Part shown: positions 1 to 12,667 of the stretch, one piece after another
Layout of the letters: every line of letters starts with the position of its first letter
Position numbering within the stretch: the first letter of the stretch is position 1
Virus record (IMG/VR): IMGVR_UViG_2541047764_000008
From: a virus
Lineage: Duplodnaviria; Heunggongvirae; Uroviricota; Caudoviricetes
DNA: 32,225 nucleotides
Reading direction: 5' to 3' (one strand)
Position numbers and translations under genes: made by a program
The notes under the pieces: model-generated
What the model saw: the letters and a program-made list of their open reading frames with translations, nothing else
Told to the model about the DNA's origin: nothing
The model's database searches: none

Positions 1-17
1 AACACGAGCAAACAGAT

Positions 18-45
18 AAAAAAGGGCCAGCCAATTGGCCAGCCC
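18..45 (-). terminator. Rho-independent terminator candidate downstream of the ATPase/HNH cassette
   Basis: On the minus strand, 24-45 reads GGGCUGGCC-AAUU-GGCUGGCCC (9-bp stem with two G-U wobbles) followed by a U6 run (plus-strand A run 18-23). It lies about 180 bp past the stop of the 230..1108 ORF. Confidence 0.5.
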
Positions 46-229
46 TTCTTAACAGGATGTCGCTTAAGCGAAACCTTAGTTAAGACGCTCCTAATCAAAA
101 CTCATAGAAAGCACACATTTACCATATAAAACAATTAGTTAATTTAATTTTTAATGCAGTGAATTGCAATGTTATGCAAGCTCTGCCGCCATACTGCCGC
201 CACTTTAGATTTACTCAAAAATCCCATAC

Positions 230-1108
230 TTACTCATAGGTAGCAGATGAAATTTCAATCATTGACGATCTTTCAAAAATTTGCTTACCATTATTAAGAA
301 ATGTAGGGGACGAGAGAAGGGCATCGAGAGTCAACCATTGCCATAGATCGATCGTATACCTAGATTTAGGATAATCCTTGGATCGGGCATTCAGTAAGTC
401 ACGTTTAATCTCTATCATTTCATGCAATGATAAATTTTTAAAAGTAGCATTCCTGACCAATTCCTTAACTAAGCTAATTGCCTTCGCACTGAACGTGTCT
501 AGTATGCCGAATTTTTTAACATGAAATAACACTCTTTTATATTCAACTGTATTTTTCTCATAGTTAATTTGAAAATAAATTACATTATCCATTTCAGAAT
601 ATACAGCCGTTAACCAATTGTAATTATAGAACTGATCAAATAACGGATGAATTAATTGATTTTCTTTTGAAAGAGAGAAATATTTAGATTTCATTCTATT
701 GCAGTAATCACAAGCAGGGATAAGATTATTATAGGATATAGAAAGGGATGGAAAATCTTCTTTTGGTAAAAAATGATCTAACGTACTGGCTTCACCAATG
801 TGACATAACAAACATTTTTTATTCGGGCTTCGGCGAAGTAATTCATCATAATATTTTCTAGGCTGTGTTCTTTTTTTTGACAGCCTTTCATTATAAAGCC
901 TTAATAACTCAGACGAATCAAAACCTGCCGTCTTTGATATATCTTTAAATTCATAAAGCAGTCCATAAATTGCATGAATTTTGTAAATCTTGTGACAAGC
1001 CCTCAAGTATTCCCCTTGATCCTTTTCTACTTGAGTAAAGTCTCTATTGCGCCGCCCTACTACGCAACTCCTATATACATCATCAAATTTAACATGCATC
1101 CTCTTCAC
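230..1108 (-). CDS. HNH-nuclease-domain protein, second gene of a two-gene ATPase + HNH cassette (Septu PtuB-like architecture)
   Basis: 292-aa ORF with an HNH-type motif at residues ~99-140 (CLLCH...DHFLP...NNLIPACDYCNRMK). Its GTG start overlaps the upstream ATPase stop as GTGA; an ATG at 1099 is an alternative start. Markedly AT-rich by eye. Confidence 0.6.
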   Translation of the reverse strand: MKRMHVKFDDVYRSCVVGRRNRDFTQVEKDQGEYLRACHKIYKIHAIYGLLYEFKDISKTAGFDSSELLRLYNERLSKKRTQPRKYYDELLRRSPNKKCLLCHIGEASTLDHFLPKEDFPSLSISYNNLIPACDYCNRMKSKYFSLSKENQLIHPLFDQFYNYNWLTAVYSEMDNVIYFQINYEKNTVEYKRVLFHVKKFGILDTFSAKAISLVKELVRNATFKNLSLHEMIEIKRDLLNARSKDYPKSRYTIDLWQWLTLDALLSSPTFLNNGKQIFERSSMIEISSATYE

Positions 1109-2583
1109 CCTTTATTTTTTATAGCAGAGTAAACAACAGCACGCCCTTCCAAGCCGATCTGATTATTATATGCATTAAACACTGCACCAGCACTTGTATA
1201 TTTTTTGGAATCCTCCTCCAATAGAGAATAGAAGCCTGACTTTCGCATATCAAGGTTAAAAACTTCAGATGTAATTTCTCCTACCCCCTCGCCGAATGTT
1301 TCTATTGTTGGCCGCTGAAATTCAGCCTCTATATCGCCTGAGCGAAACATTTTCCAAATACAAGCTTTAGGTGTTTCTTGAAGAACTACTGGAGAGTGAG
1401 TGGCAATCACAGCCATCCCATTGTTTTCTTTCAGTATCTCAGACAACGTTCTAATAAATGCGGAAAGTAAAGGAGGATGCAAATGATTCTCTGGCTCATC
1501 GAAGATACATATTGTTTTATTTTCTATTAACTCAATAACATGAGTAATGTAGTATATTACCGCCGCATGCCCTGAGCTCAACGATTTAAAGATGGTTGTT
1601 GATGCATGTGTAAACTCCTCTTGGCTAACAGTGATGAGATTTGAAAGTCCTAAATCCTTAAAATTCACATCAACTTCTAAAGTCTCTATTATTCTAGTCC
1701 ATGTTCCTTTTTTTATTTCAGATCCATATATGCAATTATATAATGACTTGGAAAAATCATTAGCCAAATCATTGTTTATATCCTTTAGTTCTCCGCTACC
1801 TTGTTTATAGAGACCAATATATTTTTTCTTTGTTTGAGTTGTGCTAAACCTAACATCATTAAAATCAACATTTTCAAAAGGTTTATCAAAAACACTTAAT
1901 GAAAAATACAATAACAAACCAAAATCATAAACTGAGACAGGATCACCATTTATCTTTGTTACAACATAATTACTTTTATCGATATTTTCAACAATTGTTC
2001 TTAGTAAATGGCTTTTCCCTACCCCATTACGCCCAATGATTACATGGACATTTTTTGGCGGTTTAGAATCAGATTCCACGATAAAATCCGGCGAAACACC
2101 ATTCTCATAATTAACACGAAAACCGAAATGTCTCAATGAAACGCCAGACTGCAAAATGTCTCTAAACTGCATAACACTTGATATACTTACATATCTAGTG
2201 AGTGAGTCAACAAATACACTTTCATCCCTTACATCTTCAAAAATATTTTCATCATAAACGATATCTCTCAACCTAGTTAAAAGTTTCACCCGAAATTCTT
2301 GAGGCAAATTCTTTAAGGCCGAATAGTATTCTGGAGATTGTCCAAGTGAAAAATAATCATTAGCCAGACTATCAAACTCTGCATCTAACTTTTTATATGT
2401 ATGAACTGATTTCTCTTGTCTCTTAAATCCTATTTTAACCTCTCCAACCTTTACAACATTACTACCATGAGAATAATGTAGTAAAAATGAAGTTTCAAAT
2501 GAAAAATCATTCCAATTGGTTATTGGAGTTAGATATATTATAAATGTCGAATTTGATTGAGGAGGGCCAATTTTTATAAACAT
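1105..2583 (-). CDS. ABC-type (AAA_15/21-like) ATPase with ~180-aa N-terminal extension, first gene of the ATPase + HNH cassette (OLD/PtuA/GajA-like ATPase fold)
   Basis: 492-aa ORF with Walker A GRNGVGKS (184-191), signature-like LSSGH (335-339), Walker B ICIFDEPE (358-365) and H-loop ATHSP (393-397). GGAG sits 6 nt upstream of the ATG. The start is only 37 bp downstream of the int stop on the same strand. AT-rich by eye. Confidence 0.65.
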   Translation of the reverse strand: MFIKIGPPQSNSTFIIYLTPITNWNDFSFETSFLLHYSHGSNVVKVGEVKIGFKRQEKSVHTYKKLDAEFDSLANDYFSLGQSPEYYSALKNLPQEFRVKLLTRLRDIVYDENIFEDVRDESVFVDSLTRYVSISSVMQFRDILQSGVSLRHFGFRVNYENGVSPDFIVESDSKPPKNVHVIIGRNGVGKSHLLRTIVENIDKSNYVVTKINGDPVSVYDFGLLLYFSLSVFDKPFENVDFNDVRFSTTQTKKKYIGLYKQGSGELKDINNDLANDFSKSLYNCIYGSEIKKGTWTRIIETLEVDVNFKDLGLSNLITVSQEEFTHASTTIFKSLSSGHAAVIYYITHVIELIENKTICIFDEPENHLHPPLLSAFIRTLSEILKENNGMAVIATHSPVVLQETPKACIWKMFRSGDIEAEFQRPTIETFGEGVGEITSEVFNLDMRKSGFYSLLEEDSKKYTSAGAVFNAYNNQIGLEGRAVVYSAIKNKG

Positions 2584-2620
2584 ACTTGCTCCTTATAAGC
2601 CAAACCGTAACAAATTACAC

Positions 2621-3643
2621 TTAGAGTAAATTACTTAGAGGATTTAGTGTAACCGCATCCTCTAAATGCTCGGGAGAAAAGTGGGCATATCTCATCGTTT
2701 CACGAATATTAGCGTGGCCAAGAATGCGTTGCAATACAAGGATGTTCCCACCATTCATCATGAAATGAGACGCGAAGGTATGTCGTAATACGTGGGTCTT
2801 TTGCCCTTCAGCCAACTCAATAGATGTCAAAGCTAGCATCTTTTTAAAGTCTTGGTAGCAGGATTTAAACATCCTTCCTTGACGTGTGGATAGTTCGTCA
2901 TAGAGCCATTTAGGAATCGGAACAGTTCTATTCTTCTTACCTTTGGTTTTGGTGAAGGTCAGCTTGTAGGGTGAGAGTTGAGCGCGTGTAAGCCTCTCGG
3001 CTTCTCCCCATCGTGCACCGGTTGCCAAACATACCTTAACAATCATCGTAAGATTTTCTTTGCCATATTGTTCACAGGCTCGGAACAGCTCCGGGAGCTG
3101 AGACAAAGTTAGCCAGGACATTTCTTTCTCAGCTTCTTTGAATACGCGAATCCCGTCCAGTGGATTGGGTAAACTCCACTCCCCTAATCGTCGCAGTTCA
3201 TTGAACACTGCTTCGAGGTATTGCTGCTCGCGATTGACAGTTATAGGTTTGGCGATCCACTTCGCCGGGTCTTTGTGATAGCCGTTGTCTATTTCGCCAC
3301 GTAATCGACGGTCACGGTAATGAGCCCAATCTTTAGCGGTAAGACGAGATGCAATAGGGTCGCCCAACCCGTTACATACGATTTGAAGCTTTGCCAACCG
3401 CGACTTACTGGCTACTAACGCCTGACCGTGCAAATTGTGCCAAAGCTGAATAATCTCACTTAAGCGTCGGCGGTCTTCTTTCTTGCCGAGCCACGGCTTA
3501 TCTTCACTCTCGCTTTTGGTAAATGCTTCGAATGCCTCGGCCTCACCTTTGGTATTGAATTGACGACGTATACGCCGCCCTTCCCGGCCATTTGGATAAA
3601 GCTCACATAACCATTTACCATTTTTTTGCTTACTTACTGTCAT
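2621..3643 (-). CDS. int: Tyrosine integrase (P2/186 Int family)
   Basis: 340-aa ORF; the C-terminus carries the catalytic-region signature HVLRHTFASHF...LGHANIRETMRYAHF typical of tyrosine recombinases. It sits downstream of the repressor on the same strand, as in P2/186. Confidence 0.9.
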   Translation of the reverse strand: MTVSKQKNGKWLCELYPNGREGRRIRRQFNTKGEAEAFEAFTKSESEDKPWLGKKEDRRRLSEIIQLWHNLHGQALVASKSRLAKLQIVCNGLGDPIASRLTAKDWAHYRDRRLRGEIDNGYHKDPAKWIAKPITVNREQQYLEAVFNELRRLGEWSLPNPLDGIRVFKEAEKEMSWLTLSQLPELFRACEQYGKENLTMIVKVCLATGARWGEAERLTRAQLSPYKLTFTKTKGKKNRTVPIPKWLYDELSTRQGRMFKSCYQDFKKMLALTSIELAEGQKTHVLRHTFASHFMMNGGNILVLQRILGHANIRETMRYAHFSPEHLEDAVTLNPLSNLL

Positions 3644-3666
3644 AGCTACACCGAGGCCAAAAAATA

Positions 3667-4005
3667 TTATTCACACAACGCTATAGCTTCACTGAAAATC
3701 GGGCCAATATCAGCGCTTTCTAATGAATCGTTAGGGTCTTTTTTAAGAACTTCTTTTAAATCTCGCCCTTCCATTTTTCCTGATTTGACGGCGTTTTTAG
3801 CCATACCGCTTAGGGGGTATCGTTCATCCGTATCAATGTCATAAACAAAAACGTAGTGACTATTTACACAAGATACCTTTGCATGCTCAAAGGTCAGCGG
3901 CCATTTATCACCAAAAGATTTAATATCAATCTCTTTGAACTTTTCAGCGGCAAAGGTTGAGGAAGAGAGTGCAATACAGATTATTCCAAATAAAAACTTT
4001 TTCAT
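3667..4005 (-). CDS. Small secreted/periplasmic protein (moron) between repressor and integrase
   Basis: 112-aa ORF with a classical N-terminal signal peptide (MKKFLFGIICIALSSSTFA followed by AEK) and two Cys in the mature part. AT-rich relative to flanking int and cI. No family assigned. Confidence 0.55.
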   Translation of the reverse strand: MKKFLFGIICIALSSSTFAAEKFKEIDIKSFGDKWPLTFEHAKVSCVNSHYVFVYDIDTDERYPLSGMAKNAVKSGKMEGRDLKEVLKKDPNDSLESADIGPIFSEAIALCE

Positions 4006-4014
4006 TACTGCTCC

Positions 4015-4878
4015 TTAAACATGCTTTTCCAAGGTAAAGATAACTGCACCTGATGGTGTGATATCAGAGAGATTACATTCAAACTCAGCAGACTTATTTG
4101 ATAGCCTGACCTTTCCACCTGGCATTCTGATTACGTCAAAAATATCGAGCGCACCATCAATGCCAATAAGCCAACGACCATTTCCTATCTTTGAGTTAGA
4201 ACAATCAACAAGCCAAGATGCGCCAACTCCATCAATAAAGACCAACTCATCAATGTTTGCAGGAACCATTGAAAGGTCTGGAGTCCAACGCCCAATATCT
4301 TTTAACTCACCAGCTTCAAGACGACATTTTCTTACTGTTAAGGCGTTAAGTGATTCACCCTCTTTGCTGTCTCGCATTTGGCCTTTTCCTGTAGATAGCC
4401 ACTCTAACGATACGCCAGTATCGAGTGCGCAGGTCACAACCACATCGCCAGGGAAGAAGTCACGCCTAACCCAAGTGCTAATAGTACCGGAAGAAATACC
4501 TAATAAATCACCAAGCTCTTTTTGCATCGTAAAACCATAAGCATCCAGAATCCTACGCAAAACGGTTTTACCGCCGTTCGTCATAATCTCGTCATAAAGC
4601 TCTTTGCCTTTTAACTTGCAACCGACTCGCCCATGATTTGCATTTGCAAGCTCACCACTTACAAGCCAATTAATATCAGCGCCCGTGTCAAGACAACACC
4701 TAACTATGATGTTGCCAGGTATTGCATCGCGTTGAACCCAGCCGCTAACGCTATGTTTCGCGATTCCTAGCAGGTCAGCCAAATCCTTTTGCATCTTGAC
4801 GCCATAGGCTGACATTAAGCGCTCTAATACGCCATTTGACGCACCTATGCGCCACTGAACATCAAGCTCAGAACTCAT
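4015..4878 (-). CDS. cI: CI-like immunity repressor with tandemly duplicated N-terminal HTH domain
   Basis: 287-aa ORF. Residues ~17-75 and ~107-165 are an obvious internal repeat (LERLMSAYGVKMQKDLADLLGIAKHSVSGWVQRDAIPGNIIVRCCLDTGADINWLVSGE versus LRRILDAYGFTMQKELGDLLGISSGTISTWVRRDFFPGDVVVTCALDTGVSLEWLSTGK), each resembling the 186-type CI HTH module, followed by a C-terminal domain. It is divergent from the early operon. Confidence 0.7.
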   Translation of the reverse strand: MSSELDVQWRIGASNGVLERLMSAYGVKMQKDLADLLGIAKHSVSGWVQRDAIPGNIIVRCCLDTGADINWLVSGELANANHGRVGCKLKGKELYDEIMTNGGKTVLRRILDAYGFTMQKELGDLLGISSGTISTWVRRDFFPGDVVVTCALDTGVSLEWLSTGKGQMRDSKEGESLNALTVRKCRLEAGELKDIGRWTPDLSMVPANIDELVFIDGVGASWLVDCSNSKIGNGRWLIGIDGALDIFDVIRMPGGKVRLSNKSAEFECNLSDITPSGAVIFTLEKHV

Positions 4879-4907
4879 AAAAACCCCTACAGATAATTTT
4901 ATGGGTG

Positions 4908-4936
4908 TTTACAGAAAACTTTTTACGATCTATAGT
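4908..4936 (+). promoter_or_regulatory. Candidate early rightward promoter (pR/Pe-like) in the lysis-lysogeny switch region
   Basis: TTTACA (4908-4913), 17-bp spacer, TATAGT (4931-4936), upstream of an AGGAG RBS and the ATG at 5000. It lies in the intergenic region between divergent cI and the early operon. The partner leftward promoter was not confidently located. Confidence 0.45.
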
Positions 4937-4999
4937 GGCACTTATCGACCAAGATGCACACCACTGCACTACATTTCAAACAACAGGAGATAATGCGAT

Positions 5000-5353
5000 A
5001 TGTCAGATGCAAAATCAATCCCGCTGCATGACGCACAAAACTTACAAAATCAAACTGTATTGCTAGACGCTGGTCAGTTCAATGCGCTTGTAACCATGAT
5101 GCAGCTATCCATGCAAAACATGATTCGTACAGCGATGTTAGACACCATGTCAGTAAAAGACTTCGCCGCCGCCCGTGGCGTTAGCGAGCGTCTGGTCTGG
5201 CAATGGATTGATGAGGGCGTCCTTCTCAAAGCTCCCACCAAAGATGTTACCAGCAAAGAAAAAGCCGCTAAGCGTGGCCGCACCCTTATCAACGTCAAAG
5301 CATGGCGTGACAAACTGACCCAGCAAGCTATCGATTGCCGTTATATCAACTAA
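5000..5353 (+). CDS. Apl/Cox-like early regulator (HTH DNA-binding protein)
   Basis: 117-aa ORF, first gene of the rightward early operon in the position of P2 cox / 186 apl. It has a central HTH-like segment (VKDFAAARGVSERLVWQWIDEG) and an AGGAG RBS. Confidence 0.5.
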   Translation: MSDAKSIPLHDAQNLQNQTVLLDAGQFNALVTMMQLSMQNMIRTAMLDTMSVKDFAAARGVSERLVWQWIDEGVLLKAPTKDVTSKEKAAKRGRTLINVKAWRDKLTQQAIDCRYIN

Positions 5354-6148: not shown

Positions 6149-6335
6149 ATTAAGAATTGTTTTAGGAGCCATGATTCCGAGTATGGAAGACGGTTTTGAA
6201 ATTAAAACCCGCGACGGTGCAATACTTCGTGTTGACCCTGAGTGGGAATGCTGCAAAGAGTTTAAGGATGGCCTGAAAGCTGAAATTATCAGCCAGTTAA
6301 AAAGTAAACCTGCCGTTGTATTTGGCTATAGCTAA
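6135..6335 (+). CDS. Hypothetical small early protein
   Basis: 66 aa from the ATG at 6135 with an AAAGGGA RBS; the track ORF starts at 6105. Followed by an intergenic gap. Confidence 0.4.
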   Translation: MSRDELRIVLGAMIPSMEDGFEIKTRDGAILRVDPEWECCKEFKDGLKAEIISQLKSKPAVVFGYS

Positions 6336-6898: not shown

Positions 6899-9124
6899 AT
6901 GACAAAATATACTTTTGCTTTTCCGTGGAATGCCCCACGGTCGGCAATAGTCAGTCCATATCTTACCTACGACCAACAGTATCGCCGCGACCGTATGTTC
7001 GCGGCTTTGCTGCATGCGAAAAAGGTGCTTTCTCTCCAGCCCGACTGCGTGCGGTTAGATGTTTATCGCACTGCTGCGGTGCTGGAGCAAAATCAGGGCA
7101 GTCAACGAACCAATGCCTTTTTAATCAGCTTCTGCAAAAAGGCATTGCCGCGTCTTGAACTGGTCGCAAAAAAATACGAATGCGCGGGTATCAACAGCAA
7201 TGTATCAACCGCTGTTTTTGGAGGTCATTTTGATACCCAGCTTATGCAATATCTGGCGTCTCGCATGGTTAATATGGTCGCCCGATATAACCGCCTCCCG
7301 GACATGTCGCGCGCTGATGTTGACCTGTTGGCCGCTGATATTGCTAATTTCATTCGTGGTGAACTTGCCAACATTGATGACAACGGATTCGGCGAGCTTA
7401 AAACGCTGTACACCTGGTATATCCGTGCTGGCTTTATTTCCCTCCAATTCAACGTTATCCCACCACATTGGGATCGGGTTGCAAAAAAATATGTCGGCGC
7501 GGATGAAATCGCACCGGCTATCGCCAAGATGTTTAACGATGGGTGGTGGCGTGGTCGTTTGCGCCGTGTTGCGGCTACTTGGCGCGAACACCTGCAAATT
7601 GCAGTCGGCAACGTCAGCAAGAAAAAAAACACCTACGCGAGTAAAAACTGCGTGACTGACTGGCGTGAACAAAAGCGCCGCACTCGTGAATTTCTCAAAG
7701 GTCTGGATCTCGAAGACGAAGACGGCAACCGTATCAGCCTGATTGAAAAATATGATGGCTCAGTTGCTAACCCTGCCATTCGCCGCTGTGAGCTCATGAC
7801 CCGCATTCGTGGGTTTGAAAACATCTGTAATGAGCTCGGTTATGTTGGTGAGTTTTACACTCTAACCGCGCCGTCAAAATATCACGCCACGACTAAAGCC
7901 GGGTACCGTAACAGCAAATGGAGCGGTGCTAGCCCGGCTGACACGCAAAACTATCTAACCGGTATCTGGGCGCGTATCCGTGCCAAACTGCATCGGGAAG
8001 ATGTCCGTATTTTCGGTATTCGTGTCGCCGAACCCCATCACGACGGCACTCCACACTGGCACATGCTGATGTTCATGCTGCCGGAAGATGTTGAATATGT
8101 TCGATCCATCGTCCGTAAATACGCATGGAAAGAAGACCGCCACGAACTGAAAAGCGATAAAGCCAAAAAAGCACGTTTCCACGCCGAGGCCATTGACCCG
8201 GAGAAAGGCAGCGCAACCGGCTATGTTGCTAAATACATCTCAAAAAATATCGACGGTTATGCTCTCGATGGTGAAACCGATGATGAAAGTGGTGAACTGC
8301 TGAAAGAGACAGCCCCCGCCGTTTCAGCATGGGCAGCGCGCTGGCACATCCGTCAGTTTCAGTTTATCGGTGGTGCGCCGGTGACGGTCTACCGTGAGTT
8401 GCGTCGCCTCGCTGATACCGAAACCGCGCACGGCCTGAGCGTTGAGTTTGCCGCCGTCCATGATGCCGCCGACGCAGGTGACTGGGCTGGTTATGTTAAT
8501 GCGCAGGGTGGGCCGTTTGTCCGTCGCGATGATTTACAGGTGCGTACACTGTATGAACCCCGTACCGAGCTTAATCAGTACGGTGAGGAAACGGTATGTA
8601 TTAAGGGGGTCTACGATTCCTCCATAGGTGCAGGAAGCCCGATTTTAACCAGGCTTACTCAGTGGAAGATTGTTCCGAAGCGTGCTGTTGATTTGGCCGT
8701 TGACCTTCAGGACGGCAAAGCCGTCCCTCGGAGTTCTGTCAATAACTGTACGGGAAGCGAAAGCGATCCACCGATACTGGATTTAACAAAACCACTGAGT
8801 CGGCGTGAAAGACGAGAATTGACCAACCGACTCAGGAAGCAAAAGCCAGCAGCACGGCGAAAATTCATCCACGGAACGGATGAGCAAAACGCAGCTATAG
8901 CTAAAACTATCGACGAAATACATCTGACAACCGGCATTAATATCAGCCGGGGCGAAGCCCTGCACCTGATGGCCGGTGGTAAAAGTTGTTTTGATGGTAA
9001 ATGGCTACGCGGAACGGCCAAAGGAGAAATATTTTCCGCAGCACCATCGCATGAGGCTAAAGCTCGGAAAATCCTTAATCGTGTTGCGGCGATGGCTGAA
9101 GCATCAAAACCAATACATGAGTAA
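6899..9124 (+). CDS. A: Replication initiation protein A (rolling-circle HUH endonuclease)
   Basis: 741-aa ORF with an HUH-type motif (GTPHWHMLMF) and a downstream tyrosine motif (GYVAKYISKN). Size and position match P2/186 gpA. The exact start is uncertain; 6899 is the first ATG of the ORF. Confidence 0.9.
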   Translation: MTKYTFAFPWNAPRSAIVSPYLTYDQQYRRDRMFAALLHAKKVLSLQPDCVRLDVYRTAAVLEQNQGSQRTNAFLISFCKKALPRLELVAKKYECAGINSNVSTAVFGGHFDTQLMQYLASRMVNMVARYNRLPDMSRADVDLLAADIANFIRGELANIDDNGFGELKTLYTWYIRAGFISLQFNVIPPHWDRVAKKYVGADEIAPAIAKMFNDGWWRGRLRRVAATWREHLQIAVGNVSKKKNTYASKNCVTDWREQKRRTREFLKGLDLEDEDGNRISLIEKYDGSVANPAIRRCELMTRIRGFENICNELGYVGEFYTLTAPSKYHATTKAGYRNSKWSGASPADTQNYLTGIWARIRAKLHREDVRIFGIRVAEPHHDGTPHWHMLMFMLPEDVEYVRSIVRKYAWKEDRHELKSDKAKKARFHAEAIDPEKGSATGYVAKYISKNIDGYALDGETDDESGELLKETAPAVSAWAARWHIRQFQFIGGAPVTVYRELRRLADTETAHGLSVEFAAVHDAADAGDWAGYVNAQGGPFVRRDDLQVRTLYEPRTELNQYGEETVCIKGVYDSSIGAGSPILTRLTQWKIVPKRAVDLAVDLQDGKAVPRSSVNNCTGSESDPPILDLTKPLSRRERRELTNRLRKQKPAARRKFIHGTDEQNAAIAKTIDEIHLTTGINISRGEALHLMAGGKSCFDGKWLRGTAKGEIFSAAPSHEAKARKILNRVAAMAEASKPIHE

Positions 9125-9198: not shown

Positions 9199-9218
9199 TA
9201 CTGTATAAATATACAGTA
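9199..9218 (+). promoter_or_regulatory. LexA operator (SOS box) overlapping a promoter upstream of the Tum/DinI-like module
   Basis: TACTGTATAAATATACAGTA is a near-perfect match to the LexA consensus TACTG(TA)5CAGTA. A -35-like TTGCCA sits at 9185-9190 and the box overlaps the -10 region. A GGGAGG RBS and the ATG at 9238 follow. Confidence 0.75.
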
Positions 9219-9237: not shown

Positions 9238-9420
9238 ATGGTTGGCGAACATTTCAGCCGAACGCAGCAAAAGTGGGCTTGTGTGCAATTTATTGCCGAG
9301 GTATCTCTGATTGCAAACTGCAAGCCATCAGACTTAAAGCTCGCGCTCACTCTCATTGCAGACCTAGCAAACAGCGAAAATAACGAAACCGAAGATGATA
9401 ATTTTTATAAGGCTGATTAG
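9238..9420 (+). CDS. Small SOS-regulated ORF, possible N-terminal part of a Tum-like antirepressor
   Basis: 60-aa ORF with a strong RBS (GGGAGG, 5-nt spacer) directly downstream of the LexA box. It is in the same frame as the DinI-like ORF, separated only by TAG (9418-9420) plus one codon. Confidence 0.45.
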   Translation: MVGEHFSRTQQKWACVQFIAEVSLIANCKPSDLKLALTLIADLANSENNETEDDNFYKAD

Positions 9421-9423
9421 ATT

Positions 9424-9657
9424 ATGAGAATCAATATCACGTTGGATAAAGAGCAAAAAATTAGTCAGGCAACGTTGGATGCACTTGAGGCTGAGCTGTA
9501 CCGCAATCTTCAACCTATTTACCCAAAGACTGCTATCCGCATTCGTAAGGGCTCAGCTAATGGCGTTGAGTTAAGCGGTTTGAAACTGGACGAAGATAAA
9601 AAACGAGTAATGGAAATCATGCAGCAGGTATGGGAGGACGATAGCTGGCTGCATTAA
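9424..9657 (+). CDS. DinI-like protein (possible C-terminal/Tum72-like part of a Tum antirepressor)
   Basis: 77-aa ORF (MRINITLDKEQ...WEDDSWLH) resembling E. coli DinI in length and in its acidic Trp-containing C-terminus. It lies downstream of the LexA-controlled promoter. Confidence 0.7.
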   Translation: MRINITLDKEQKISQATLDALEAELYRNLQPIYPKTAIRIRKGSANGVELSGLKLDEDKKRVMEIMQQVWEDDSWLH

Positions 9658-9726
9658 CAAACGCCGTCGGTGCTGAATCTTGCTTTCAGTGCTGGCGGGG
9701 TTGAAACTGGCTCCGAGAGGCGTTAG
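9658..9726 (+). repeat. Imperfect direct repeat, copy 1 (~70 bp)
   Basis: AACGCCGTCGGTGCTGAATCTTGCTTTCAGTGCTGG...GGCGTTAG; shares the first ~40 nt almost exactly with the copy at 10062-10130. Confidence 0.6.
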
Positions 9727-9850
9727 TTCTACCTTTCAAACTTTCTCGATGTTTTATTGGTTACACACCGGTGATTAATGGGACGTTACCTTAGAGGATT
9801 TTATAGTGGCGCTTTGACAGCACTGAATAAAATTCATTGAGGGCGATAAT

Positions 9851-10060
9851 ATGCATCGACTACCGGGCGAAATTCCGCAGCACAAAACTAAAAGCATAAA
9901 ACTGATGGCTATCGTTCATCGCTTGCAGACGATAATGGTCAATGAGAACCTGACGCCAGCGGAATTGGTCGGGTGTGCAGAAATAGTCAGGGATAACTAC
10001 GATAAGCTGAACGATATCAGCAGGCCGACACAATATGCGCCACCACCATGTCGAAGATAG
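9851..10060 (+). CDS. Hypothetical small protein flanked by direct repeats
   Basis: 69-aa ORF with a GAGGG RBS 7 nt upstream of the ATG. No recognisable motif. Confidence 0.35.
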   Translation: MHRLPGEIPQHKTKSIKLMAIVHRLQTIMVNENLTPAELVGCAEIVRDNYDKLNDISRPTQYAPPPCRR

Positions 10061-10061
10061 C

Positions 10062-10130
10062 GAACGCCGTCGGCGCTGAAACTTGCTTTCGGTACTGGAG
10101 GGTTGAACAACGAGTCCCTCTAGGGGTTAG
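10062..10130 (+). repeat. Imperfect direct repeat, copy 2 (~70 bp)
   Basis: AACGCCGTCGGCGCTGAAACTTGCTTTCGGTACTGG...GGGGTTAG; a partner of the copy at 9658-9726. Confidence 0.6.
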
Positions 10131-10272
10131 TCTGTTCCGTAGAGATTGGCCCAAACCGGCACTATTAAAGCCGGTTTTCGTATGTCCAATCTAAAGAATG
10201 GGGGCTGACATCCCACCATCAGATTTGTGTTATTTTAGTGCTACTCATTCGTCATTAGACATTGTAAGGGCA

Positions 10273-10989
10273 ATGTATATGAAACCAAGCACACACTGCG
10301 TTTATTGCGGTGTTCTCATGAATAAGGTTGAAAATCACCCCCACTGCCGCTCAGTTGAACACATGATTCCGCAAGTTTCAGTCTCCATTCATAGAACCAA
10401 CGGCGAAGGTGATTTCTATGTATGCAAAAAGTGCAATGGCGATAAAAGCCGAATTGACGAGGTGTTAGGTGTCATTTGCCGCATGGTAGGAGAGCACTCA
10501 ACAGGCAGCTTTGATGCTGTTAATAAATTCCATAATGCGCTTAAAAGAAAAGACTCGAAATTTCGTGAAGCATTCCAGAGTGTTAGGCATACAAAAAAAG
10601 GTGCGCAGATAACATTACCCCTAAATGGTAGGGAGATTTACCAATACGGCACCTGGTTAGCCAAGGGAGTATTTTTCTTAGAGTATGGGCAATTGTTGAC
10701 TGTAGATAAATTAATTTGGATTAATATCGTTCGCCACGATGAAGTAATGGCTATTAAAGAAATGTATAGAAATGAACGTGGCTCTGAGGCATTTGATGAT
10801 TTATCGAAGAATAGCAACATTCCAAATATTAATGGCGAGTCGTTTCTGATTGTTGGCCAGGATGCCCGAGAAATGTTTATTTGCTTCAATAGAGTAATGA
10901 TGTTTCATATAAAGATACTGGATAGAACGTTTATTAATCAAAAAAAATGCAAAAAAGCCCTACTCAATCTGGAAAAAAGGGTTCGATAA
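10273..10989 (+). CDS. HNH-nuclease-domain protein with uncharacterised ~170-aa C-terminal domain (moron in the A-to-cos accessory hotspot)
   Basis: HNH motif at the N-terminus (CVYCG...HPHCRSVEHMIPQ...FYVCKKCNGDKS). AT-rich by eye and sharply different from flanking phage DNA. Start uncertain: ATG at 10273 or 10279; the track's longest form starts at 10198. Confidence 0.55.
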   Translation: MYMKPSTHCVYCGVLMNKVENHPHCRSVEHMIPQVSVSIHRTNGEGDFYVCKKCNGDKSRIDEVLGVICRMVGEHSTGSFDAVNKFHNALKRKDSKFREAFQSVRHTKKGAQITLPLNGREIYQYGTWLAKGVFFLEYGQLLTVDKLIWINIVRHDEVMAIKEMYRNERGSEAFDDLSKNSNIPNINGESFLIVGQDAREMFICFNRVMMFHIKILDRTFINQKKCKKALLNLEKRVR

Positions 10990-11153: not shown

Positions 11154-11357
11154 TGCGCGCCAGCGGTGGTGCGTATTATTAAAAATTATCGTCTGAGAAC
11201 GTCGTGACGGCGCTGTAGTGGCCGGGTGTGATCGTGGGCGCGTGGTGCGTCTGTGGCGTGGTGCTAAAGGATGGGATCAGTTGCACAATTTTACGGTTTC
11301 GCTTTGGCTAATATCCATATTGAGACTTTATGTTCCCCACAACAGTTGGAGGCTTTA

Positions 11358-11582
11358 ATGGATAACTATCATATTACAAAAGATGGCGATAAGTGGAAGT
11401 TGCAAAAAGAGGGCAATGACCGCCCTAGCAAGACCGCGCCCACAAAGGCCGAGCTGATTAAAACAACATCTGAGTTTATGTCGAACAAAACAGGCTCGGT
11501 CAAAATTCACAAGGAAGATGGGAAAATTCAGGAAGAACGCACTTATCAGAGAAAAGATGATCCTAAAAAGTCTAAGGGCTAA
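11358..11582 (+). CDS. Small conserved hypothetical protein (DUF2188-like)
   Basis: 74 aa from the ATG at 11358 with a GGAGG RBS 5 nt upstream. The pattern KDGDKWKL...G...IHKEDGKIQEERTY...DP resembles small DUF2188-type proteins (from memory). Confidence 0.4.
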   Translation: MDNYHITKDGDKWKLQKEGNDRPSKTAPTKAELIKTTSEFMSNKTGSVKIHKEDGKIQEERTYQRKDDPKKSKG

Positions 11583-11620: not shown

Positions 11621-12667
11621 TTATTCCGGGTTGTCGAGTGTGTACTCTTTGAACCTGATGACCTCCATACCGAGCCAGTCGTTTACCTCCCTGAACCTAT
11701 CCTGCAGGGGTGACAGCTCATTACGCACAAATACCTTTGCCACCTTCTCAACGTCACCGAGTGAACCGATATTCTCGGGCTTGCCGCCCATGAGCTGGAA
11801 CGGCACGCGGTGCGCGTCCATCAGGTCGGCGGCGCTGGCTTTCTTAATGTTGAAAAAGTCATCCTTTGTGGCGACCTCGCTCAGTGGCACGATTTTGATG
11901 CCGTCCGGTTTTCCGCCGGGGGCGTAGAAAAACAGGTTCTTAAAGTTGCCGAGCCCCTTCGAGTTACGCATCGCCTCGCGCAGCGATTCGACGTCGGTCG
12001 CACTTTGCGCCGGGTCAGTCACATACATGATGTAGCCTGCGTGCGCGCCGTTCTGATAATACTTGCGGCGGAACAGCGTCGCGGATTCATTCAGCCAAGC
12101 GGAATTAAGCGCGCTGAGATATTCCGGCAGACCGTAAATCTCCTGATTAATGTCGGGCTCCAGCAGGTGAAACACGGTATCAGGCGCGAACTCGTGCGGC
12201 TGGGTGAAGTTTTCCACAAACCAGAAAATCGAATCGTCGACTCCGCGTCGGGTGTATTTGGCTGGCGAGGCCAGCAGTTTGATTAACTGGCCGGTGACGC
12301 TGTGGCGCTGCTCAAGAAAGGCGTTACCGAACACCAGATAATCGAGCGCAAAGCGGCTGAAATCCTGACGGGATAACAACGGGTGCGGAATGTAGGTGCT
12401 CGCGAGCACGTTACGCTTAACATAAATTGGCGAGCTGTGATGCACGGCAGAGCGCAGGCTCTTTGCCAGCCCTGAGAAGCTGACCGGCGGCTCGTACCAT
12501 TTGCCGTTACTGATGCACTCGACGTAATCCAGAATGTCGCGCTTATCGAGTACCGGCACCGGCTCGCCGAAGGTGAACGCTGTCGTTTTTGGCGGTGCGC
12601 TGGCGGTCAGTTGTTGTGGTTTGCTGGCCTTTTGTGCGTTGGCTTTACGGGATTTTTGTTTACCCAT
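11621..12667 (-). CDS. Q: Portal protein (P2 gpQ-like)
   Basis: 348 aa; size, orientation and position next to cos and the terminase match P2 Q. Confidence 0.85.
   Translation of the reverse strand: MGKQKSRKANAQKASKPQQLTASAPPKTTAFTFGEPVPVLDKRDILDYVECISNGKWYEPPVSFSGLAKSLRSAVHHSSPIYVKRNVLASTYIPHPLLSRQDFSRFALDYLVFGNAFLEQRHSVTGQLIKLLASPAKYTRRGVDDSIFWFVENFTQPHEFAPDTVFHLLEPDINQEIYGLPEYLSALNSAWLNESATLFRRKYYQNGAHAGYIMYVTDPAQSATDVESLREAMRNSKGLGNFKNLFFYAPGGKPDGIKIVPLSEVATKDDFFNIKKASAADLMDAHRVPFQLMGGKPENIGSLGDVEKVAKVFVRNELSPLQDRFREVNDWLGMEVIRFKEYTLDNPE

Follow-up and report, generated by a model that had tools for sequence, protein, structure and literature searches.

Introduction

Why is a small open reading frame (ORF) of a P2-like prophage bracketed by two imperfect direct repeats? 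The question is raised by IMG/VR virus record IMGVR_UViG_2541047764_000008, a 32,225-nucleotide stretch of DNA that was analysed as a whole and is referred to here as the window. The initial annotation of the window offered two readings of the repeats, duplicated regulatory or RNA elements and scars of a small insertion carrying the ORF, and named Rfam searches, searches for copies elsewhere and a comparison of related prophages as ways of choosing between them.

A large share of enterobacterial genomes carry P2-like prophages. The repeats lie in the right-end variable "TO region" of P2-like phages, which recent papers treat as an anti-phage hotspot. In two such papers (Rousset 2022; Nucleic Acids Res 2026), the gpA-to-cos region is a recognised reservoir of anti-phage systems, how cassettes reach so predictable a place is left open, and one of the two describes the integration mechanism as "presumably different" and unknown; keyword searches of the two turned up no conserved non-coding element at the hotspot. 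Sequence strings of the element described below were not found in the literature searched, although an earlier mention in work on the P2 "TO region" is possible. Nilsson et al. are said to have sequenced this region in 18 P2-like coliphages, reportedly in Mol Biol Evol 21:1 in 2004.

Results and Discussion

The repeats lie within the SOS operon of a PSP3/186-like prophage

The window is a PSP3/186-like prophage of the P2 family (Peduoviridae), and both repeats are inside its LexA-controlled tum/dinI operon. Upstream, on the + strand, the replication endonuclease gene gpA (6899-9124) contains a probable ori (8727-8753) that is 99.6% conserved. Downstream of gpA follow a p95-like promoter (9199-9218, + strand) with a LexA box (CTGT-N8-ACAG, 9201-9216), which was compared with the annotated p95/LexA site of 186, a tumA-like gene (9238-9420, + strand) homologous to the 5' part of 186 tum, and a DinI-family gene (9424-9657, + strand), the homologue of PSP3 tumB, whose TAA at 9655-9657 directly precedes the first repeat. 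The 69-aa ORF between the repeats (9851-10060, + strand; TAG at 10058-10060; phrog_11386) is a conserved phage gene; its homologues include PSP3 gp37 and an ORF of a P2-type phage that is likewise followed by the repeated unit. Beyond the second repeat are a t95b-like intrinsic terminator (10156-10178, + strand; CCGGC-loop-GCCGG-TTTT), 26 nt past the repeat, a variable hotspot cargo gene between terminator and cos (10198-10989, + strand; 263 aa, HNH-like CxxC...H...CxxC), the cos region and the portal gene (11621-12667, - strand; P2 Q homologue), which is the right-hand anchor of the variable region.

The p95-like promoter with its LexA box is the likely start of the SOS operon and would transcribe both repeats. 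At the second repeat, the succession of repeat, spacer and terminator matches the layout of phage 186; the t95b-like terminator was missed by a consensus terminator scan because its T run is short.

The repeats are two copies of a folded element

A repeat search of the window returned a 45-nt direct repeat at 9655-9699 and 10058-10102, with 84% identity and 403 nt apart. Within the 32 kb window, a 24-nt degenerate core matched at the two repeat sites only, and it matched in 0 of 100 dinucleotide-preserving shuffles. The direct repeats around a small ORF, as first noticed, are thus real. They had also been described as alike over their first ~40 nt and divergent thereafter; the similarity in fact runs further, and after a divergent middle the copies become alike again at their 3' ends (GGCGTTAG and GGGGTTAG), so the units extend over 9660-9726 and 10063-10130, both on the + strand. 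We refer to the repeated unit as element E. Both copies start 2 nt past a stop codon, copy 1 (AACGCC...GGCGTTAG) past that of dinI/tumB and copy 2 past that of the 69-aa ORF.

In copy 1, a hairpin (9660-9702, + strand) with an AAC/GUU base, one unpaired position per side and a 14-bp stem containing several G.U pairs carries its loop at 9678-9684 and is followed by a 3' tail (9703-9726, + strand; GAAACTGGCTCCGAGAGGCGTTAG), a variant of the consensus GAACAACGAG-N-GCGAGGCGTTAG. A short CUGAA/UUCAG hairpin had been proposed here; the A-to-G change in copy 2 that turns its U-A pair into U.G was confirmed, but the real hairpin is much longer. The predicted fold of copy 1 (3 + 14 pairs, -35.9 kcal/mol) stood out from shuffles on the + strand (z = -4.4), with a z-score of about 0 on the - strand. 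Copy 2 retains the fold, but with a z-score of 0.09 it does no better than shuffles. It is degenerate, with two broken stem pairs, loss of the stem-base G and replacement of the GAGG of the tail (CTAGGGGTTAG). A covariance model built from other phages scored copy 1 at 74.3 bits (E-value about 1e-19) and copy 2 at 64.7 bits (1e-16), as compared with ~95 bits for consensus-like copies of E. Copy 2 is the more decayed of the window's pair.

A single fold of E is maintained by compensatory changes

The anatomy and covariation of E were taken from an alignment of 41 diverse copies. E is a discrete conserved element of ~69 nt, in which a stop triplet and 2 nt are followed by a hairpin and a fixed 3' tail, and its borders are sharp, (A)AAC forming the left end and GTTAG the right end. 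The hairpin spans 43 nt and has 17-19 bp; a base of three pairs (AAC with GUU) is joined, with or without a 1x1 mismatch, to a 15-bp stem; the loop is usually CUYGY (4-5 nt), and C..G loops resemble CUUG-type stable loops. The tail, GAACAACGAG-N3-6-GCGAGGCGUUAG by consensus and 25-28 nt in total, includes a Shine-Dalgarno-like GAGG.

Changes on both sides were seen in 13 of the 15 core stem pairs among the 41 copies. The 18-pair helix was 93% paired in the same copies, compared with 33-50% for slid controls, and none of 500 shuffles equalled any of the helix measures. The stem sequence is therefore free to vary while its pairing is maintained: the 43 hairpin sequence clusters from a tail-anchored search all share one fold, and the 43-nt span was found in 104 of 133 distinct copies. 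RNAalifold independently recovered the helix and predicted no pairing of the tail. The stem alignment, in which the L011 copy stood in for window copy 2 when G.U and A.C pairs were tallied, held 90 G.U cells versus 13 A.C cells. This imbalance indicates that E folds on the + strand only, which in turn makes a double-stranded protein-binding palindrome unlikely. The + strand is the sense strand of gpA and of the tum/dinI operon. By its pattern of pairing, the active form of E is single-stranded, whether as RNA or as the top strand of the DNA. Compensatory changes that keep a structure, the general mark of a structured cis-acting RNA, are present in E; a top DNA strand would look identical. The suggestion that the repeats are duplicated regulatory or RNA elements fits a widespread element whose + strand-only hairpin is kept in this way.

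The same data bear on whether the repeats could be neutral leftovers, either of a recent local duplication or as a functionless shared remnant. Both window copies are degenerate relative to the family consensus and E is dispensable in many relatives, as leftovers would be, but compensatory changes preserve the stem over all 43 hairpin clusters, the length is constant and E is spread over phages of at least six genera. Moreover, in 22 distinct sequences comprising E and the terminator, E was almost invariant beside an adjoining spacer that was variable, so E is more constrained than the neighbouring non-coding DNA. Contradicted by both covariation and conservation, neutrality appears highly improbable.

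Several other pairings and signals were considered and rejected. An outer helix (AACG/CGUU) closing the whole of E showed no covariation and had one position unpaired in 16 of the 41 copies. A loop-tail pseudoknot (CUYGC with GCGAG) was 89% paired, but nearly all of the bases involved are invariant, and the pairing fails for CUGG, UUUA and other loops. The partner of a second, "T-arm-like" hairpin (GGGG/CCCC) would be the N3-6 stretch, which varies without compensation. A promoter in the tail, with TTGAAC as its -35, was discounted for want of a usable -10 and because the spacer differs in length between copies; read-through coding across E is opposed by the variable spacer length together with the stem covariation.

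E is widespread in P2/186-type phages and keeps its orientation relative to gpA

The search for copies elsewhere was productive, and E was found in many related phages and E. coli genomes. It is present in 85 phage records, among them 186, P2, Wphi, PSP3 and phages of Klebsiella, Yersinia and Erwinia, and Pantoea phages carry it too. More than 240 IMG/VR stretches contain it, as do 526 of 5426 complete E. coli genomes, at 599 places (1-3 per genome); these counts are phylogenetically non-independent and come mostly from closely related Escherichia, Klebsiella, Salmonella and Yersinia phages. E is abundant and sharply defined. It carries no annotation in any record examined, and the E. coli matches listed show only neighbouring genes that overlap the query. 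In phage 186, for example, it lies unannotated between orf97 and the terminator t95b of the SOS operon.

Among 79 loci fetched through gpA, one genome per species, 22 carried E (in Escherichia, Citrobacter, Enterobacter, Kluyvera, Scandinavium, Pantoea and Erwinia) and 57 lacked it, some of the latter with a gpA about 90% identical. E is therefore dispensable. In these 79 loci neither iterated nhmmer nor the covariance model added to the copies that nhmmer had already detected. Both plasmid copies examined sit in P2-like prophages within the plasmids, and the distribution as a whole shows E to be specific to P2/186-type phages of Enterobacterales.

The position of E is as constant as its fold. 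gpA was located upstream on the same strand, 469-3248 nt away, in 153 of 155 pattern-found copies, and in all 83 copies with enough downstream sequence the portal gene followed E in the reverse orientation. The two exceptions to the gpA orientation share one contig, L270, which carries two inverted P2-like right ends. No locus has more than two copies. Of the non-coding DNA between gpA and cos, E alone is strongly conserved.

The strand-specific hairpin and the fixed orientation relative to gpA, with E only 0.5-3.2 kb downstream, led us to consider E as a single-stranded DNA signal for lagging-strand initiation or for helicase or primase loading on a displaced + strand. P2 protein A has been cited as an initiator of rolling-circle replication. 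On this reading, gpA would nick the ori in its own gene, for which the stretch at 8727-8753 just upstream of E is the probable site, and rolling-circle replication would displace one strand. Plasmid sso elements are modular, dispensable and orientation-bound, and combine a conserved fold with short conserved unpaired motifs; E may be compared with them on each of these points. E is likewise similar to the primosome sites of phiX174 and G4 in its orientation-dependent, strand-specific hairpin with short conserved unpaired motifs, and, like both kinds of site, it is a modular and dispensable element near an HUH-type replication gene. Unlike them, it is phased with stop and start codons, and we know of no sequence similarity between E and sso or primosome sites. 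That phasing, with the enrichment of ATG past E reported below, would be meaningless for a DNA signal; E is also missing from the 57 of 79 loci that have a similar gpA, and E and the conserved ori stretch have no evident similarity by eye, on which ground E was also rejected as a second ori. We consider a role as a DNA signal unlikely.

Flanking genes change exactly at the ends of E

The genes preceding E vary by phage and include dinI/tumB, tumA, 186-type tum, orf97, orf37/orf91 and, rarely, a reversed cargo gene. The flanks of 154 copies fell into 25 left-flank and 52 right-flank clusters in 71 combinations, with similarity ending exactly at the ends of E. Some right-flank clusters are diverged forms of phrog_2100, and independent junctions are therefore fewer than clusters. 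The commonest context, with the operon terminator ~25 nt past E, accounted for 31 of the 154 copies. Because the right side is hypervariable cargo, E marks the left edge of the hotspot; it provides a nucleotide-precise landmark for that edge and helps to delimit cargo in genomes and metagenomes.

The two halves of E differ in how they relate to the flanks. Copies that share only the right flank were 0.88 alike in the 3' half of E and 0.76 alike in the 5' half, and copies that share only the left flank were alike throughout E (0.91). The 5' half thus tracks the left flank and the 3' half tracks both, a pattern suggesting that some crossovers occurred inside E and others at its 3' end.

Such junctions raise the possibility that E is itself a recombination site, cut at its GTTAG end on a folded strand or by a site-specific enzyme (attC-like, or an HUH enzyme such as gpA). 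Cassettes captured or exchanged at E would then create the left border of the hotspot. Dozens of unrelated sequences start directly past TTAG, E occurs in units of a gene plus E (dinI-E, orf37-E and orf97-E), two of them in tandem in the window, and the recent hotspot papers leave the integration mechanism open. The integron attachment site attC offers a further parallel: E, too, is a 60-70 nt imperfect palindrome that adjoins a gene at its 3' end, folds on one strand, keeps its fold while its sequence varies, lies at cassette borders and ends in a GTTAG-like sequence.

The likeness to attC does not extend to the ends of the element, however. E lacks complementary R''/R' cores and has an asymmetric 3' tail in place of a closed stem, no integron integrase is known to accompany it, and the cargo cassettes have no distal copy. 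Compared with the attC pattern (RYYYAAC ... GTTRRRY), the terminal pairing of E (AACG/CGUU) shows no two-sided changes, and complementarity does not extend beyond AAC and GTT; attC arrays, in particular, were rejected given at most two copies of E per locus and downstream cargo genes without a distal copy. Some junctions are nested 6-20 nt past E (CTGGTTACC..., CTATGG...), and the covariation of the 3' half with both flanks is as expected of ordinary homologous crossovers in E. If E is the whole intergenic region, selection for intact genes also yields sharp borders. A recombination site of this kind therefore seems quite unlikely.

We regard as very unlikely the bolder proposal that the P2 "tin/old" locus owes its hotspot character to E, acting in cis much as an attachment site does in an integron. 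In that case the + strand hairpin and tail would become single-stranded when cos is cleaved or when the adjacent ori fires rolling-circle replication; gpA or a host enzyme, as nuclease or recombinase, would recognise them and cut or pair precisely at the GTTAG end, and defence cassettes would be captured and swapped there. Located where ideas on defence-cassette exchange could be put to the test, E offers a short testable sequence for recombination at the hotspot.

E may act in the operon transcript

E is phased with the neighbouring genes. In 105 of 125 copies, pairing begins 1-3 nt after a stop triplet. On the other side, 19 of 68 right-flank clusters have an ATG 1-3 nt past E, where the rough chance expectation is ~3, and this placement sets the GAGG of the tail ~9 nt ahead of the start of phrog_2100 (85 aa) or of a UmuD-like gene; the loci concerned are mostly of the Pantoea, Erwinia and Enterobacter type. 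The gene downstream of E was co-directional in 31 of 51 contexts. Several relatives that lack E carry a t95a-type terminator hairpin after tum.

Strand, position and phasing are the features from which a role for E can be judged, and they point to RNA as the most likely. Our preferred reading, held tentatively and at somewhat less than an even chance, is that E is a cis-acting RNA hairpin plus leader in the intercistronic or 3' region of an operon, and that its use in crossovers is a consequence. It would act in cis within the transcript of the early operon in P2-type phages or of the SOS operon in 186/PSP3-type phages. The very stable hairpin 2 nt past the stop codon would end and protect (or process) the message of the upstream cistron, in the place taken by the partial terminator t95a, which follows tum in relatives lacking E, and the tail would be the leader or ribosome-binding region of the next gene, where a conserved host or phage factor would probably recognise it. 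E is a candidate regulator or insulator of the SOS or early operon.

The phasing on both sides, taken with the co-directional downstream genes, suggests that E makes up the whole intercistronic region of the operon, possibly with dinI-E-phrog_2100 as the ancestral arrangement. As a full intercistronic region, E would owe its sharp borders to selection keeping both E and the genes beside it intact, and every viable recombinant would have to retain E whole. Kept whole and nearly identical across diverged phages, it would in turn become a crossover or junction point for neighbouring modules.

Several observations fit the cis-acting RNA less well, among them the dispensability of E shown by the 57 loci without it. 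The tail is conserved in 186-, P2- and window-type contexts that have no start codon after it, so the role as a leader leaves part of the function of the tail unaccounted for; its conservation also goes far beyond what an ordinary ribosome-binding region would require. A few copies, furthermore, lie between two reverse-oriented genes, where sense transcription is not obvious.

A conserved, unpaired and sequence-constrained tail might instead be the seed of a trans-acting small RNA, of which E would be the body and t95b an Hfq-type 3' end, released from the 3' end of the operon. In its most frequent context (31 of 154 copies) E is indeed followed by an intrinsic terminator at ~25 nt, and it lacks its own promoter, a usual trait of 3'-UTR-derived small RNAs. 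In most contexts, however, a gene and not a terminator comes after E, no convincing target complementary to the tail was found within the 32 kb phage window, and E has no relative in Rfam. A small RNA is, in our judgement, rather unlikely.

E resembles known elements without matching them

Set against described elements, E is best seen as a structured motif that is new but belongs to a familiar general class, and it is well supported as a candidate RNA/DNA motif family. The Rfam search matched no family to either copy: Rfam 15 gave no match in the whole window at gathering thresholds, and at E-values up to 10 the two window copies and the consensus-like copy of RCIP0057 returned noise, with a best score of 17.5 bits against a 58-bit threshold. 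ARAGORN found no tRNA or tmRNA genes in the window. An intrinsic terminator was also rejected; the hairpin is followed by GGUUGAACAACGAG, with no U run, and the terminator scan listed nothing at either copy. A hairpin without a U-tract makes no ordinary terminator.

Among the stabilisers and retroregulators of intercistronic regions and 3'-UTRs are REP hairpins after stop codons, the RNase III sites of T7 and sib of lambda. Like these, E is a stable sense-strand hairpin after a stop codon in a polycistronic unit and has no U-tract, but it differs in its sequence-conserved tail of 25-28 nt and its strictly conserved stem length. For an RNase III site, a helix of ~20 bp and cleavage are called for; the stem of E has 17-19 bp with an optional 1x1 mismatch. 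Unlike REP-type hairpins, E occurs once or twice per phage and is not dispersed over the chromosome. A dispersed repeat of the REP, BIME or ERIC type was rejected, given 1-3 places per E. coli genome and, in viral contigs, copies flanked by gpA and portal.

The modular-evolution model of mosaic lambdoid phages holds that conserved "boundary" or "linker" sequences lie at module junctions. E is similarly a short conserved non-coding sequence with differing modules on either side and crossovers within it. It departs from such sequences in having a selected secondary structure and strand specificity of its own, beyond mere shared homology.

Three short motifs invited comparison. The RfaH-recruiting ops/JUMPstart element has an invariant GGCGGTAG core on the non-template strand, and the 3' end of E, GGCGTTAG, is one base off it; GGCGGTAG was found in 2 of 154 copies and GGCGTTAG in 130 of 154, and no Rfam family, the JUMPstart model presumably being in the library, reached an E-value of 10 on a consensus-like copy. 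Chi is GCTGGTGG, and the 3' stem arm of E, GCTGGCGG, which points towards cos, is likewise one base off. Exact Chi was present in 0 of 154 copies and nowhere in the window; the one-off form was present in 113 of 154 and is lost in diverged hairpins. A boxA-like sequence (UUGAACAA, compared with the boxA consensus UUUAACAA) lacks the GCUCUU core. All three identities were rejected.

The E-orf-E arrangement of the window

Related prophages show how the arrangement in the window may have arisen. RCIP0057 has dinI-E with the terminator directly following and Midge has dinI-E followed by other cargo; both have a single copy and no ORF. In a P2-type phage the orf37 homologue is followed by E, downstream of gpA, and in many E. 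coli prophages homology to the window runs out exactly past copy 1, with matches ending at 9728; E. coli Ecol_545, by contrast, carries this prophage at 99.9% identity. The single-copy relatives and this end of homology indicate that the ORF plus one repeat behaves as an insertable or deletable module. The idea that a small insertion carrying the ORF had left scars was therefore right about the outcome but not about the nature of the repeats, which are neither scars nor target duplications. They are functional-looking units that elsewhere also follow other genes (dinI, tumA, tum, orf97 and orf91/orf37).

As the only conserved island between gpA and cos, E would be the crossover point for cargo exchange, and this would explain the E-orf-E duplication. 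A dinI-E module would have been joined to an orf37-E module to give the E-orf37-E of the window, and with two copies in place, both would have started to decay. In two-copy loci of checked order (e.g., PSP3 and L012), the copy after dinI scores below the copy after orf37, and the lower score of the dinI-side copy fits relaxed constraint when two copies are present.

Probable SOS control and replication origin of the prophage

A LexA box, CTGTATAAATATACAG, lies at 9199-9218, shortly 5' of the tumA-like ORF and within a promoter very similar to p95 of the phage 186 SOS operon. SOS induction of the prophage is therefore probable, acting through tumA and tumB (DinI) as a split pair like that of PSP3. 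Inside gpA, the replication endonuclease gene, CTCGGAGTTCTGTCAATAACTGTACGG at 8727-8753 shows 99.6% identity over 65 gpA genes with a mean nucleotide identity of 71%. This stretch very likely holds the origin of rolling-circle replication or the nick region.

Sequence and surroundings of the conserved element

In E. coli-type copies of E, the ~69-nt hairpin and conserved 3' tail found between gpA and the portal gene, the 3' stem arm reads GCTGGCGG (113 of 154 copies of E over all loci), which differs from Chi by a single base and points towards cos. A search of the 32 kb window for true Chi sites returned none.

The unusual tail of copy 1, the E copy that follows dinI/tumB, shares a 13-nt stretch (9698-9710) with the dinI coding sequence (9577-9589). 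A sequence similar to the tail, GACCGCGAGGCGTTAGA, was also seen inside the tum coding region of two other phages (L140, ~8685-8725; L142, ~8705-8745). These likenesses to dinI/tum could be due to chance, could reflect gene conversion, or could mean that the tail descended from dinI/tum coding sequence.

Downstream of E, phages of the Pantoea, Erwinia and Enterobacter type (L161, L169, L173, L134 and L159) carry phrog_2100, a conserved family of 85-89 aa proteins with no Pfam match, whose start lies 1-16 nt 3' of the element. The gene is pseudogenised in L168 and L190, and phrog_2100 may be the ancestral partner downstream of E.

Two settings of E were unusual. Viral contig L270 has two copies, at 3860-3926 (-) and 6239-6307 (+), in two diverged P2-like right ends (portal to phrog_2100, E and dinI) that are inverted on either side of a 406-aa ORF; this double right end may have arisen by rearrangement, or the assembly may be chimeric. 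The same E match also turned up in IncC plasmids, which are conjugative, from Klebsiella, E. coli, Enterobacter and Citrobacter. In the one such plasmid examined (NZ_CP025141.1, ~205 kb; locus L206), E at 5001-5069 of the locus lies within a P2-like prophage, with a reverse-transcriptase gene in the hotspot, the variable region between E and cos, directly 3' of it.

Cargo and base composition of the window

The cargo of the window includes a 263-aa ORF (10198-10989) with CxxC...H...CxxC motifs, which matches phrog_31193, a family of unknown function; with Septu PtuB models it shows only weak similarity, in their HNH part (E = 7e-5). The ORF may encode a so far uncharacterised nuclease that provides defence or exclusion as a single gene of the hotspot. 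Adjoining cos, a 103-aa ORF (11271-11582) has a match to PDC-S16, one of the candidate systems in PADLOC (E = 1.4e-14). At the other end, positions 1-5000 are strongly AT-rich (GC 0.34-0.44 versus 0.5-0.6 in the rest) with negative GC skew, and this left 5 kb may be further cargo, a regulatory region or host flank.
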